This document shows positions 24,001 through 36,000 of a stretch of DNA of 37,769 nt, piece after piece. Where the stretch lies: the IMG/VR virus record IMGVR_UViG_2675903324_000005; one strand, 5' to 3'. The number at the start of each line of letters is the position of its first letter. The first letter of the stretch is position 1. This DNA comes from a virus (taxonomy: Duplodnaviria; Heunggongvirae; Uroviricota; Caudoviricetes). A program made the position numbers.

Positions 24001-27000
24001 GGTACGGGGGCGGCTATTGGCGCATCCGTTGGTGGTCCTGTTGGTGCTGTTGCTGGAGCAGTAATTGGCGGCATTGCTGGTTCTTTGTTTTAAGGAGTGG
24101 TGAATGAGCGGATTTGCACAGGGGTTACTTGCCGGATTCAGCACCGTTGACCAGGCAATGACCCGTCGTAAGGAGCTTGGTCTGCGTGAAGCACAGCTTG
24201 CCCGGCAACAGAAAAATAACGAGCGCGATTTTGAGTTTGCGCAGTCTCAGTTTGAACATAATAAAAACGTTGATCAGCGGAACTTTGATTACAGAGCCAA
24301 AGTTGACGACCGTAATTATGCACTGAAGGAAAGGGAGTTTAACGCTAACCAGAATTACCGGAATGCGTCACTGGGTATGGAGCAGCAGCGACTCCAGTTG
24401 CAGAAATACAACCAGCGACGGCTTGAGTATAACGATATGATTGCCCATAGCCAGCCACTAATGGAAGCGCTTGGAAAAGCAATTGAGGCTGGCGATCAGG
24501 AGGCTGCAACGCGTCTGTTCGGGCAGCTGCCAAAGGGACATCCATTAATTCTTATGTCAAACGAAGGCTATGCAGCGAAAGCGGGTCAGGCCGTGATCAA
24601 CCTGCAAAAAATCTTTGGTGATAAGCCGGACATGGCGATCGATTCGCTGAATACCCCGGAAAATCTCGATGTGCTTTCCGGCGTGTTTGCCCCGGAACTA
24701 CAACAGCGTATTGGCATGCCTGATTCAACCGGGGACAAAACGATAAAAGAGGCCAGGATTGGCAGTATCGTACCAGCGCAGCAGGAAGGGTACGTACTTA
24801 TTGGCCTTGATCTCACATACAGCGATGGCTCCACCGCGCATAAACCTGTAACAGAATACGGCAGTGCGCACCCTGATGATCAAACCGTGCTGGCGATACC
24901 CGTTGATAAGGCTATCGCTCAGGTCAGGGATCGCAGCAAATTTGCAGAGATATCGAAAAATTATGGTTATTTTATGCCGAAGCAGCAGGGACTTTCTCTG
25001 AAAGAGCTTCAGAAGGGGGCCAGCAACGTAGCGGCGGACGCGATCAAGAATGGCGGTAATGCTCAGGCTGCGGTGGATGAATATTATGCTGCGACTGGTT
25101 CACAACCGCATCAACAGAAAATTCAGCAACAAAAACTTCAGCAACAGGTTATCAACTGGGCGGGAGATGATCCTGATAAGCTGTCATTTGCCAGAAATGT
25201 AGCGGCCCGTCAGCCTGAAATGCTGGAACCTCAGAATCAGAAATTGCTGGAGAACGGGTATGCGAATTTTCTCCGTATTCAAAAGGCCAGGGGGGAACAG
25301 GCCAGAGATGAAAGTGCTTCATCTGCATCTCAGTTTATCCGTGGACTGAAACAGAATTACGCCCAGTAATTCACGATATTCCATTAATACCATTTCCTGA
25401 TGCCCGGCCATTGTGCCGGGTTTTTTTATGGAGTCTGTATGGCCTATTCAGAGGAACAGCGTCCTGAGGCGCAACTCGGTAACCAGAATCGTAACAGCCT
25501 GAACATTCAGCAACCCGGCGAAACTGACAGCTATGAAGCATTTTTCTCTGATCCGAATCGCTGGAAGGATAACAGTACGTCGTTCAGCCTGGGCGATGTA
25601 TTGCCAACAATGGGTAAAGGTTTCGCCCAGTCCGTCCGGGGAACAGGGGAAATGGCCCGTGGACTCGGTGATGCGATGATTCAGAGCCCGGTAAAAACAG
25701 GGGCGCGTATTTTAAATGAGTTCAGCCGTATGGGGCTGCCGGGTGTCGCAACTGTGCAGGATATTTTTGCCGGTGGCAGCAGGGGGGCTGATGAGGTCAT
25801 CGATACCCTGCCTGATGGCAAAAACGCGGTTACTGATACTGTCGGTAAAGGTCTGAAGGCAACCGGTAAGGCTGTCAGTGATGGTGCTGAAGCCACTGAT
25901 GAATGGCTGACCGGTAAGATGTCGCCGGGTGCAGTTCGTGCGCTGAATACGCCGATGACCGAAGGCTATGATGATTCTGCGGTCTGGGTGGCGAAGGGTG
26001 TAAACCTGATTGGTGCGCTTGTACCTGATATGGTTGCTGGCGGTGTGGCTAGAAAGGTGGGTGATGTCACACTGCGAAAAATGCTGACCGCCGGGCTGGA
26101 GAAAAAATACATCGCGGCAGGGATGCAGCCGGAAAGAGCCACGGCACTGGCAGCAGAAGCTGTCGATAAAAAAATGCCGGATTTATTCCAGGCGGGCCTG
26201 ATCACCCATTCCACAGCCAGTGCACAGGGGCAGAGTGCAATGGCGGCAGCAGATGCAGTTCTTAATGCGGATTACTCTGAGCTGGCGCAGTCACCGAAAT
26301 TTCAGCAGACGTTTTTGTCCATTGACGCCGACCCGCAGCACGCACAGCTTACTGACCGCCAGAAAATGGATCTGGCAAAAGAGCGTGTTGCTGATGAGGT
26401 GCGCGCGCAGCTGGCAACCGATCCTGAATTGCTGGCTGTGAATGTCATGGCGGCAAAACTGGGTGACGCACAACTGTTTAATCTGGTGACACGAGGCACA
26501 GCGAAGACCGTTAAAAGCGGCATTGTCAGAAATGCCACGGAACAGGGGGCGATTAATGCGGCGCAGGGCGGCTATTCACGCTATCAGGAAAACACGGCAT
26601 TGCGTGAGACCGCCGGAATGGATGTGTCACCGTGGGAGGGCGTGGCTGACGCAACGATCGAAGGTGCAGCCTTTGGTGCTGCGATGGGGGCTCCATCCGG
26701 TGCGGTTGCCGGATATCGTGGCAGACGTCAGGCCGCAGAAGAAGCAGCCATGCGTGATGCTGAAACCGTGCAGCAGGACGACGCAGCCCCGCAACCAGAA
26801 TCTGTTGATCCGGTGGCGCAGCATCGTGAATCCATGCAGGGGATGAATCGCGAGCAGCTTCTGGAGCAGTATGCTGATGCGGATATGGCAACAGAGGGTG
26901 ACGCATCCGCAGCCCATCGCCGGGAAGCTGCCAGCCAGTTGTTGAATGAACTGGACGAACAGGCGAAGCGACAGGCTGTGATGAATGAGCTGAAGGCGAA

Positions 27001-33000: not shown

Positions 33001-36000
33001 GCATACCGCTGAAGGTGTGGCGGCGGGTGACCTGACGGCATCCCGTGCTGCCGGTAATGTTGTCGGTGGTATCCTGGGGGCATTCAGCCCGATCGGCAGT
33101 GAGACGTCGGAAACACTGTCCGGGGCATTGCTGAAAAATGCAGCGCCGACCATTCTGCGTCCGTTTGCGAACCTTGCCATGAATGAAAACTTCATGGGGG
33201 CGCAGATTTACCAGGAGAACATACCGTTTGGTACACCAAAACCTGACAGCCAGCTGGGAATACGTTCAACGCCAGAAGCGTACAAGGCGTTTGCATCCTG
33301 GCTGAATGCGTTCTCTGGTGGCAGTCAGTACCGTCCCGGCGCGGTGGATATCACACCGGAATCGCTGATATTCTGGATTGACTATATCTCCGGAGGGACA
33401 GGGCGCTTCATTTCCAAAACCACGGATGCGGCGGTGAAATCGCTGAATGGTATTGATATACCGGAACAGCAGGTGCCCTTCCTGGGGAAAATTTCGGGTG
33501 AGGTGATGCCGTATGCAGACCAGCAGAAGATGTACGACCGGATGACAGAGGTTGCGCAGTATCACGCAGAGCTGAAGAGTCTGACCGGTGCAGAAAGAAC
33601 GGCGTTCATTGACGAGAACAACGGAAAATTGTCGATGAACGGGCTTATGCAGGATACCCGGAAGAGACTGAAGGATTTGCGCAAACAGCGCGATGCCATT
33701 TATGCCGACAGTTCTCTCAGTCTGGCGCAGCAGGCGGCGATGGTGAAATCGGTAGAGCGGGATATGAAGGTTGCCGTGGATCGCTTTAACCGCGAGTACA
33801 ACAAAAAAGTGGGAGTGGAGTAACAGAACATGCCCCGTACGGAAGTGCGGGGCTGATTAAGAAATAAACACTCATTGACCTGTAATAACTGGAGCTATTA
33901 ACATATAGTCAGAAAGAGCATTTCATGTGATACAGAGAGCCGATTTATGTTTAATGAAGAAAAAGTTGCGCAAATGGCAGCGTATTTGCTGAAAAAGCAT
34001 GGCGGATCTATGCGTTTCATTAAGCTGAAGCAGCAACGGTAATGGCGAATAGCATTTATGAGCAAAATAATCTTGATATGTTATTAGGCGATCTGATGTA
34101 ACCGGGATGATGTTCACCCCTGCCATTTGACATCCTCCACGCCCTGAAGGACGGGGTTTTTACAGCGCACCGGATAAGATTCGGTGTTTTGTTGAAAATA
34201 CTGTGATAACAAACAGAAAACCCGTCAGTAAGACGGGCTTAGCAAGCTGGGACGGTTACTTTAATAATTTCAGTGCCTTTACATCCACTTCAACACTGCT
34301 CAGGTCTTTATCAATTTCACCCTCAATTCTTACTTTGTCTTTCGGAGAAACATTCTGCCCGGCCCATACGCTGTCATCAATATCCGTGACAATTGTCCCG
34401 CTATTGTCACGAAACTCATAACGTTCATTACCCACTTTTTTAACGATGCTCCCTTCAAGGATAACCCATGCATCATCCTTCAGTTCTTTTGCCTGCGCTA
34501 CTGTTGAACGCTCTGCTTCAGGCCCTTGGAAACCGCCCTGCTGTGCAAAAACGCCAAAAGACACACCGGAAATAAGTGCTGCAATCAATACCTTTTTCAT
34601 TCATAGTCCTCTTTCAGAGATGAACATTCAAACAGCATTTTCAGTATGGTAAAGCGCGGGTGCGTTGAGGATGCCTGACACATCAGAGGTGGCGGGAGAT
34701 TACTCCCTCGCCAGGTCTCTTACTTCTCAGATTCGTAGTCTACGAAGACAGCGACCTCCGTCTGACCGGTTCGGATTCCTACCTCGCAGAGGTCTTTCCT
34801 CGTTACCAGTGCCGTCACAACAACGGTAATACAGATGACGATCAGGGCGATTAACATCGCCTTTTGCTGCATCATAGACTGCTTCTCCTTGCCTTTCGGC
34901 ACGTAAGAGGCTAACCTACATGTGTCTAGTATGAAATTGGCCTCAGATTAATGTTAAGCGTCCTGCAAGACGCGAAATGTTAACTGGGGCTTTTCTATGT
35001 CTGCCTTACGGCGGCATGCCCGAGGCAGACAGCCTCAAGCACCCGCAGCAATTCTACTTAACTCTTCTTTCCCCGCAAACCGTTTTTATCCCCAGCGGCA
35101 AATCGAATACACCATCAGCGCTACCGCCATTGCAATACCAACATTTGAGAAGGCTTCAGGCTAGCTCATTGGCGTACCTCCTTCGGCGGTTCTGGCAGCG
35201 GCATCCAGAATAAGGCGCTCCCTAACCACGATAAAGTGCCGTCGCTCAACTCCACGTATTCCCCTTGTACCTGTCCTGCCATATACTCGCCGTGCTTTGA
35301 ATAAATTAAAATCCAATCATCTTGAGCGGGGATTCGTGTACTACAGCTTATCCAACGAGCCGGAGTTACCGGAGAGTTGCTCGACAGCTCGTTCAACTTG
35401 TAAGTTTGGCTTACAGGTTCGGCACCATGAAGCATGGAGGCGCGGCAGGAGTTCCAGCCTCTCACCTCTGCAATAGCGGCAACAGCATCGACCGCGTACA
35501 TTTTAAGAGGGTTAGGCATTGGTTTTTCTTCAGGTACTACTGGCGCTGGAGGGGCAGTGTAAAGCTGGTGCGTTCCATCAGGTAGCGAGTGACCCACATA
35601 CTCACCGAACCCGTCAATACACATGCCCCCATCTTCAACAATGCATTACGCTACAGGCTCTGCTTCCAGCGATGCCAGTGCAATCCGTGCCAGTTCTTCC
35701 GCTTCTTCTGCTGGCAGTACAACGTTGCTACCAGGTCCGTATGTTTCGCGCCACTGCTTGATTGTCAGCAGTCGCTCTTTGGTTATAGTGGTCATTTGTT
35801 AGTCCTTAAACTGCCAGTTGCAATTGCATTTCAAAGCGGTCGCGTTGTTCACAATACGCAAGAGAACTAGGGCTATTGTGTGCCTCAATCCGTTCTACCA
35901 TTAATGCTGCGCGTGTCTCTTTACTTGCAGGTGCATAAGCCCCAGACCAGGCTTTATCAATACCGATGTTTCGAGCGACGTTCGTACTATCTGCGCTGGC

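Follow-up and report, generated by a model that had tools for sequence, protein, structure and literature searches.

A giant virion protein of short-tailed Shiga toxin phages, probably a polyvalent protein with a three-part chassis and exchangeable cargo

Short-tailed Shiga toxin (Stx) phages spread Shiga toxin genes among Escherichia coli. Here, we describe a giant gene in a stretch of 37,769 nucleotides (IMG/VR record IMGVR_UViG_2675903324_000005; the whole stretch is called "the window" below), which is an Stx-converting short-tailed prophage. The gene makes up about 13% of the phage genome, and its product is essential and among the most abundant virion proteins. An earlier note, made from the DNA sequence alone, had singled it out as a candidate injected polyvalent effector. 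We consider it probable that the giant virion protein of the Stx short-tailed phages is a phage-type polyvalent protein, built from a three-part chassis and exchangeable cargo, and acting by the ejection mechanism proposed below. The chassis comprises an N-terminal domain (N-domain), the second of two predicted zincin peptidases, and a C-terminal module (C-module).

The gene itself is already known. It has been studied genetically and by proteomics, its product is a member of a described class, and the virion-borne polyvalent reading has already been published for an orthologue. What we add includes two links drawn from profile comparisons: homology of the N-domain to the membrane-inserting N-terminal domain of the phage N4 virion RNA polymerase (vRNAP), and a chassis shared with the giants of Bcep22 and Ralstonia phages. 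We also add a conserved C-module that is without a solved structural relative, and the almost complete lack of cysteine in the family.

Orthologues and published data

A megablast search recovered the full-length gene, at 90-99% identity, from 186 phage records, all of them Stx-converting short-tailed phages (933W, VT2-Sakai/Sp5, and phi24B types), and in these records the product is mostly annotated as "hypothetical protein". The open reading frame (ORF) matches PHROG 616 from end to end. The phi24B orthologue, gp47, has an equal size and 97% nucleotide identity over its full length, and in phi24B, as in this Stx prophage, the giant gene is the last of the late operon. The earlier note had placed the gene after the tail and internal-protein genes, and PHROG matches for an "internal virion protein" (17106-18794) and a tail fibre (18794-20059) agree with this placement.

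Mondal et al. (2016) reported that ORF80 (ECs1242) of phage Sp5 is essential. In the dORF80 mutant, the DNA is packaged normally and the heads are normal, and there are no plaques and no binding of a tail-fibre antibody; the authors class ORF80 as required for tail formation. The giant gene is thus not merely an accessory effector, but is essential for infectious, tailed particles.

A 2026 preprint combining cryo-electron microscopy (cryo-EM) and proteomics (bioRxiv 10.64898/2026.04.10.717836) reported phi24B gp47 in purified virions by mass spectrometry. In its supplementary table, gp47 has 10,962 peptide counts, second only to the major capsid protein, so that the suggestion of a virion-borne multi-domain protein, which absence from purified virions would have contradicted, is borne out in a 97%-identical orthologue. 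The gp47 counts are highest in the top gel bands, which argues for a largely full-length protein in the particle. The protein is invisible in the phi24B cryo-EM map, and the authors propose a capsid-packaged ejection protein, in which they also noted LPD5, LPD1, LPD38, and MuF-C. Among relatives outside the Stx phages, JC1 gp69, a homologue of Bcep22 gp75, is virion-associated by mass spectrometry, and PTXU04_00025, the LPD38-containing giant of coliphage PTXU04, is needed for infection.

Domain layout

The gene and the parts of its product, in amino acids (aa), are as follows.

25439..33823, + strand: giant ORF, 2,794 aa plus stop codon, orthologue of Sp5 ORF80/ECs1242 and phi24B gp47 (vb_24B_48)
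25691..26758, + strand: N-domain, aa ~85-440, by profile comparison homologous to the N-terminal domain of phage N4 vRNAP
25979..26035, + strand: most hydrophobic segment by hydropathy, aa 181-199, within the stretch aligning to the N4 membrane helices
26759..28084, + strand: polar, net-acidic, Pro-rich linker by composition, aa 441-882, with GLPxPD repeats at nt 27851-28018
28085..29773, + strand: cargo unit 1, aa 883-1445, a helical head, LPD5, a CLCA_X-type zincin, and LPD1 (Pfam and homologues)
29021..29758, + strand: predicted zincin peptidase 1, aa 1195-1440, with HExxH at nt 29288-29302
29906..30358, + strand: predicted zincin peptidase 2, aa ~1490-1640, with HEIIHH at nt 30089-30106 (AlphaFold2 (AF2) topology)
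30479..31078, + strand: swappable cassette, aa 1681-1880, holding the MuF-C/PBECR predicted ribonuclease (RNase) (Pfam and identity profile)
31076..33820, + strand: C-module, aa 1880-2794, mostly helical, with LPD38 at nt 32867-33484 (AF2 pLDDT 84, pTM 0.80)
32774..33094, + strand: helices rich in Gly and of moderate hydrophobicity (Kyte-Doolittle 0.9-1.2), aa 2446-2468 and 2516-2552, where LPD38 begins and inside it

The Pfam families LPD5, LPD1, MuF_C, and LPD38 all score above their gathering thresholds in the giant ORF. The class of polyvalent proteins and its domains were defined by Iyer, Burroughs, Anand, de Souza, and Aravind (2017); with multiple unrelated domains of that repertoire, encoded among virion genes, the product has the make-up of a phage-type polyvalent protein. 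The earlier note had allowed for purely structural tape-measure or needle domains; what the searches returned are two zincin peptidase domains and a MuF-C/PBECR predicted RNase, together with LPD5, LPD1, and LPD38. In segment-wise Pfam searches at E<=10, the regions aa 1-1060, 1430-1760, and 1830-2500 gave sub-threshold noise only (such as Gly-zipper and Peptidase_M76, E ~0.1), and the whole protein matched nothing among the PDB sequences at E<=1.

The Pro-rich repeats described earlier are present in the form of GLPxPD at aa 811 and 827 and of PQPESLPRTV. An acidic low-complexity stretch had also been described; the stretch is indeed acidic, but only moderately so (18-20 Asp plus Glu per 100 aa over aa 401-700).

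The N-domain and the N4 virion RNA polymerase

The N-domain is covered by no Pfam family. In an exhaustive search with the first 470 aa, it was found in 101 clusters, mostly giants of 2,000-4,665 aa, and always at the N-terminus. The N-domain profile matched aa 149-443 of N4 gp50; the isolated region scored 40.9 bits, whereas the highest score among 4,000 shuffles that preserve composition was 7.6 bits and the reversed sequence gave -20. The reciprocal search from N4 recovered 17 family members at E<0.01, and hhalign (HH-suite) gave a probability of 97.2% (E 2.9e-11). On these profile scores, the N-domain (~350 aa) is homologous to the membrane-inserting N-terminal domain of N4 vRNAP. Iyer et al. 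(2017) found the N4 N-terminal region only in related phages; it is now linked to the giant family of the Stx phages.

The N4 N-terminal domain is implicated in injection and membrane association. Its predicted membrane helices lie at residues 224-278, and it inserts into nanodiscs (PMC13434306); this region aligns to aa ~182-235 of the giant protein. In N4 vRNAP, the domain is followed by a 100-residue low-complexity linker, and the polymerase as a whole has been likened to a string of beads passing through the tail. The N4 polymerase also has an internal HExxH region. Peptidase 2 matched it with an HMM E of ~0.001-0.007 in a one-protein search and with an hhalign probability of 3.3%, and we claim no relationship.

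The two zincin peptidases

Exactly two HExxH motifs are found, as the earlier note had stated: GALAHEWFHSLDNYF at aa 1284 (nt 29288) and REKLRHEIIHHAMEH at aa 1551 (nt 30089). The protein has 35 His residues, and 0.03 such motifs would be expected from its composition. Both motifs lie outside every Pfam match, and both sites are kept in distant homologues. Judged by this conservation and by the folds described below, both are real zincin peptidase sites, and zinc-dependent proteolysis is predicted.

Peptidase 1 has the features of a zincin fold: HExxH sits on one helix and a downstream Glu on another, and the sheet has three strands and an N-terminal helix. Among 46 homologues with less than 60% identity, H1263, E1265, H1284, E1285, H1288, D1291, E1375, and E1382 are 100% conserved. 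In the phage-type polyvalent peptidase of Iyer et al. (2017), strand 2 ends with a His and HExxH is followed three residues later by an Asp, and we assign peptidase 1, from its sequence, to this type. Its core is flanked by LPD5 (aa 1051-1200) and LPD1 (aa 1361-1440), and its Glu helix is the start of LPD1. It also matches NCBIfam CLCA_X (NF041907) over profile positions 3-245 of 250 (E 2.5e-44); since the score of 151.6 bits is below the family cut-off of 260 bits, it is best called CLCA_X-like. Cargo unit 1, to which this peptidase belongs, occurs in about 17 of the 63 family giants, and solo versions of ~480 aa also exist.

The second motif is a different kind of site. In 67 family sequences, its consensus is LRHE[VIL][LI]xHHGL, an HExxxH site; the HEIIHH of the window is a one-residue-shorter variant that happens to read as HExxH. 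In the same sequences, E1552 and E1607 are each 98% conserved, and E1607 is likely the third ligand. With the conserved HE, the second His, the downstream Glu helix, and a zincin fold, peptidase 2 fits the HExxxH class of zincins; variants of both kinds, HExxH with Asp and HExxxH, are in Iyer et al. (2017). Peptidase 2 is present in about 48 of the 63 family giants, directly upstream of the C-module. A few homologues have EE in place of HE at the active site (e.g., LREEIL-VHKG); these copies are probably inactivated and kept for a structural role.

The MuF-C/PBECR cassette

The Pfam MuF_C match covers aa 1750-1839 (nt 30686-30955; 1.2e-17, 64.3 bits versus a cut-off of 27.6). H1752 and S1816 are each 95% conserved in this domain, and H1801 is also conserved. 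According to Iyer et al. (2017), MuF-C is a PBECR (barnase/EndoU/colicin-like) predicted RNase with a catalytic-type His on the helix at the N-terminus plus a Ser/Thr on a late strand. The domain found here shows this pattern and is thus a predicted RNase of the PBECR type, not a peptidase. The phi24B preprint (bioRxiv 10.64898/2026.04.10.717836) calls MuF-C a metallopeptidase and bases its proposal of peptidoglycan degradation on it. This label needs correction: the HExxH domains sit in other parts of the protein, and the fold of MuF-C is that of a predicted RNase.

Between E. coli alleles, aa ~1681-1880 have 36-48% identity, and their flanks are 95-100% identical. In other words, MuF-C and its linker are exchanged as a cassette in a clean swap, which points to diversifying selection on the MuF-C domain. 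One of the clusters bearing the alternative allele has 2,066 member sequences, and both cassette types are also present in Salmonella relatives.

The C-module, the shared chassis, and the avoidance of cysteine

Where it is detected, the C-module is always at the extreme C-terminus. It also exists as solo proteins of ~900 aa, and in other proteins its fusion partners are methyltransferase, ART, PBECR1, LPD3, or portal cargo. Its profile gave only spurious poly-Q huntingtin matches among the PDB sequences. The Gly-rich hydrophobic segments noted earlier near the C-terminus are the two helices listed above, and the weak Foldseek matches are membrane transporters. A Salmonella protein of 1,594 aa (P0131) fuses the N-terminal half of a P22-type portal protein to MuF-C and an LPD38 C-module; this fusion could be a real portal-anchored variant or an artefact of assembly or recombination.

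In Bcep22 gp75 and Ralstonia Eline gp53, the N-domain (87-99 bits) is followed by peptidase 2 and then by the C-module (526-541 bits), which is also their order in the Stx-phage protein. On these profile matches, the three parts are a chassis common to the Bcep22 and Ralstonia giants. The essential neighbour just upstream, the ORF79 homologue at 24104-25369, has no similarity to the genes preceding the Bcep22 and Eline giants.

The family shares a further property, the near-total lack of cysteine. The counts of Cys are as follows.

Giant ORF product: 0 in 2,794
N4 vRNAP: 0 in 3,500
Bcep22 gp75: 0 in 4,602
Eline gp53: 0 in 4,514
55 giants of the family, each 2,000 aa or longer: 5 in 166,762
Further late proteins from the window (n = 8): 29 in 4,316 (0.67%)

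This pattern fits passage in an unfolded state through the oxidising periplasm, followed by refolding.

Proposed mechanism

We infer the ejection, the membrane insertion, the self-processing, and the targets of the RNase, and the following steps are therefore a proposal. The protein would be packaged inside the capsid mostly at full length and would be needed for the portal vertex to gain its tail. At infection, it would pass through the tail in a largely unfolded state, before the DNA or together with it; the protein has no cysteine, and polar linkers join its domains. The N-domain would insert into the inner membrane and form the cytoplasmic end of the ejection conduit. The zincins may then cut the polyprotein, and perhaps host proteins too, and so free the cargo, which in this phage would be the unit of LPD5, CLCA_X-type zincin (motif 1), and LPD1, together with the MuF-C/PBECR predicted RNase. 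The RNase may act on host or defence RNAs.

Several points weigh against this proposal. The hydrophobic segments are weak, and no transmembrane helix reaches a Kyte-Doolittle value of 1.5. The C-module (~900 aa) is without a solved structural relative and is unrelated to the C-terminal encapsidation domain of N4 (hhalign probability 0.45%; negative HMM score), and its profile finds nothing in N4 gp50-gp69. The peptidase and RNase activities are predictions from sequence, and capsid exit and cell entry, like any anti-defence role, are steps that we infer. The gel distribution of gp47 is no proof of specific processing, as the sample had been stored for six months. Finally, the absence of tail-fibre antibody binding in the Sp5 deletion was read by its authors as a role in tail assembly, and a purely internal ejection protein need not affect tail attachment.

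A broader idea, which we put forward as a speculation with rather less than even prospects, is that the three parts make up a widespread ejection-protein chassis of ~60-kb podophages, one that carries cargo and had not been recognised before, that its membrane anchor is shared with N4 vRNAP, that the chassis peptidase frees swappable effectors after ejection, and that cassette exchange tracks host defences. If this idea were true, the protein would be a natural protein-delivery vehicle with exchangeable payloads. The placement in the family and the N4 link also lead to testable predictions: a membrane-inserting end, a core peptidase as distinct from a cargo peptidase, and a block that can be deleted or swapped.

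Alternative explanations

The most serious alternative is that the protein serves mainly in the structure or assembly of the tail, as a scaffold, plug, or ruler at the portal vertex, and stays with the particle, its enzyme-like domains being incidental. We regard this as unlikely. In its favour, the Sp5 dORF80 particles package DNA normally but bind no tail-fibre antibody; the C-module is kept as one unit and also exists by itself, and the phi24B authors mention internal tail contents that possibly constrain tail orientation in intact particles. However, three enzyme-type domains keep their catalytic residues down to ~35% identity, the MuF-C cassette is exchanged between alleles with identical flanks, and the N-domain is, by its profile, homologous to that of an ejected protein, N4 vRNAP. 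The extreme avoidance of cysteine, and the fact that the protein is not seen in the resolved phi24B tail, also speak against a tail component.

Somewhat less probable still is the proposal of the phi24B preprint that a metallopeptidase degrades peptidoglycan and so opens the way for the ejection conduit to the inner membrane. Some activity that breaches the wall is needed by short-tailed phages, and the Stx-phage protein is without the SLT transglycosylase of Bcep22 gp75 and Eline gp53; therefore, some other activity must breach the wall. Yet the peptidase of that proposal is MuF-C, a PBECR RNase fold according to Iyer et al. The true HExxH domains resemble protein endopeptidases (lethal factor, Pro-Pro endopeptidases, MtfA, and CLCA_X) and not cell-wall peptidases, and relatives already equipped with an SLT domain still keep peptidase 2 beside the C-module.

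We give little credence to the reading as a DarB-like antirestriction protein, by which the incoming DNA would be modified or shielded. Its basis is a weak PHROG "DarB-like antirestriction" match at aa 2352-2682 and the annotation of the Bcep22-like relatives; this match falls in the shared C-module and not in an enzymatic DarB domain, and Pfam and NCBIfam reveal no methyltransferase or helicase domain, nor is there a Walker A/B motif. It is Bcep22 gp75 and Eline gp53 that carry an Eco57I-like methylase. Identity with P1 DarB, which would call for a DNA methyltransferase and a helicase domain, was accordingly rejected. An AAA+ ATPase powering a step of tail formation, for which Mondal et al. 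reported a COG1483 match, is the most improbable of all, and we rejected it, because neither Pfam nor NCBIfam finds an AAA or P-loop family and no Walker A or B motif occurs across all 2,794 aa. The reading that we prefer is that of a phage-type polyvalent protein with a chassis and cargo.

Limits of the gene and its neighbours in the window

The flanks of the gene hold the following features.

25402..25427, + strand: GC-rich terminator-like hairpin (25402-25421) with a seven-T run to 25427, 5' of the gene (sequence)
25430..25433, + strand: GGAG ribosome-binding site for ATG 25439 (sequence reading)
33829..33855, + strand: stable hairpin just 3' of the stop codon, with no T-run (fold)

ORF calling agrees with the uninterrupted 8.4-kb frame described earlier, a single frame on the + strand that is by far the largest in the window (the runner-up ORF has 881 aa). 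The mechanical ORF spans 25400..33823 and would encode 2,807 aa. We prefer the start at 25439, because the in-frame ATG at 25400 is located within the terminator-like hairpin, whereas ATG 25439 is preceded by GGAG. This start, with 2,794 codons, agrees with the 2,793 aa published for Sp5 ORF80. Some public records use a start upstream of 25439, among them HM208303, with the ATG inside the hairpin, 13 codons upstream, and the phi24B preprint, with a model of 2,811 aa. Hairpins had been said to bound the gene, and both do fold better than shuffled controls (dG -17.6 kcal/mol, z -2.4 upstream; dG -19.6 kcal/mol, z -4.1 downstream).

In older Stx-phage records, short antisense ORFs are annotated inside the giant gene (HM208303, minus strand, 23005-23328, 25480-25860, and 26211-26582). 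Such ORFs, of which there are also many mechanical ones in the window, are most likely not genes.

The portal gene lies at 6997-9141. The tail-fibre gene at 13694-16339 (881 aa) encodes a protein with collagen and phage fibre repeats and, at its C-terminus, a Peptidase_S74 chaperone domain, and the gene has an unusually high GC content (0.57-0.61) and a strong AT skew. Its product exceeds the 645-aa tail spike of phi24B, and the fibre is therefore a variable region. Downstream of the giant gene, on the opposite strand, lies a mosaic accessory region (33824-37769) with a BOF/YgiW-like OB-fold protein, DUF551, and an Ead/Ea22-like protein. A 251-aa ORF in this region matches half of the PHROG "queuine tRNA-ribosyltransferase" profile, and only 51-58% of the region is covered in the closest Stx phages.

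Comparison with known systems

Sp5 ORF80 and phi24B gp47 are the same gene as the one described here and show allelic differences only, many E. coli alleles having the other MuF-C cassette. The polyvalent proteins of Iyer et al. (2017) resemble the giant ORF product in uniting unrelated domains in one giant, with a zincin peptidase hub, PBECR/MuF-C, LPD1, LPD5, and LPD38; their survey differs in that Stx phages and 933W are unmentioned in its main text.

Like the peptidase 1 domain, the CLCA_X/CLCA_N zincins (Lenart et al. 2013) have a conserved Asp after HExxH. Phages, prophages, and plasmids are the main sources of the CLCA_X zincins, whose sister is the CLCA_N peptidase domain; eukaryotic CLCA_N is proposed to cleave its own precursor (PMC10669480). 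Unlike CLCA_X, the domain here is embedded between LPD5 and LPD1 in a giant protein.

The "DarB-like" giants Bcep22 gp75, JC1 gp69, and Ralstonia Eline gp53 (4,500-4,600 aa) are likewise encoded where the virion module ends, with portal and capsid genes related to those of 933W. Their cargo is different: Bcep22 gp75 and Eline gp53 carry an N-terminal SLT transglycosylase, the Eco57I-like methylase, and LPD3, and they are without the LPD5/CLCA_X/LPD1 unit and without MuF-C. Phage T7 gp16 carries an N-terminal SLT domain, as do these relatives of the giant ORF product. By analogy only, gp16 is also comparable in that, among the internal proteins of a short-tailed phage, it is the largest, and in that it has been proposed to extend to the inner membrane.

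N4 gp50 (3,500 aa) is also giant, cysteine-free, capsid-packaged, and invisible in virion maps, and it has a homologous N-domain, a low-complexity linker after it, and an internal HExxH region. Identity with an N4-like virion RNA polymerase was nevertheless rejected: N4-like proteins carry the polymerase families PF21769/PF21894, whereas no polymerase family is matched in the giant ORF product, and of the two N4 end domains, the N-terminal one is shared and the C-terminal one is not.

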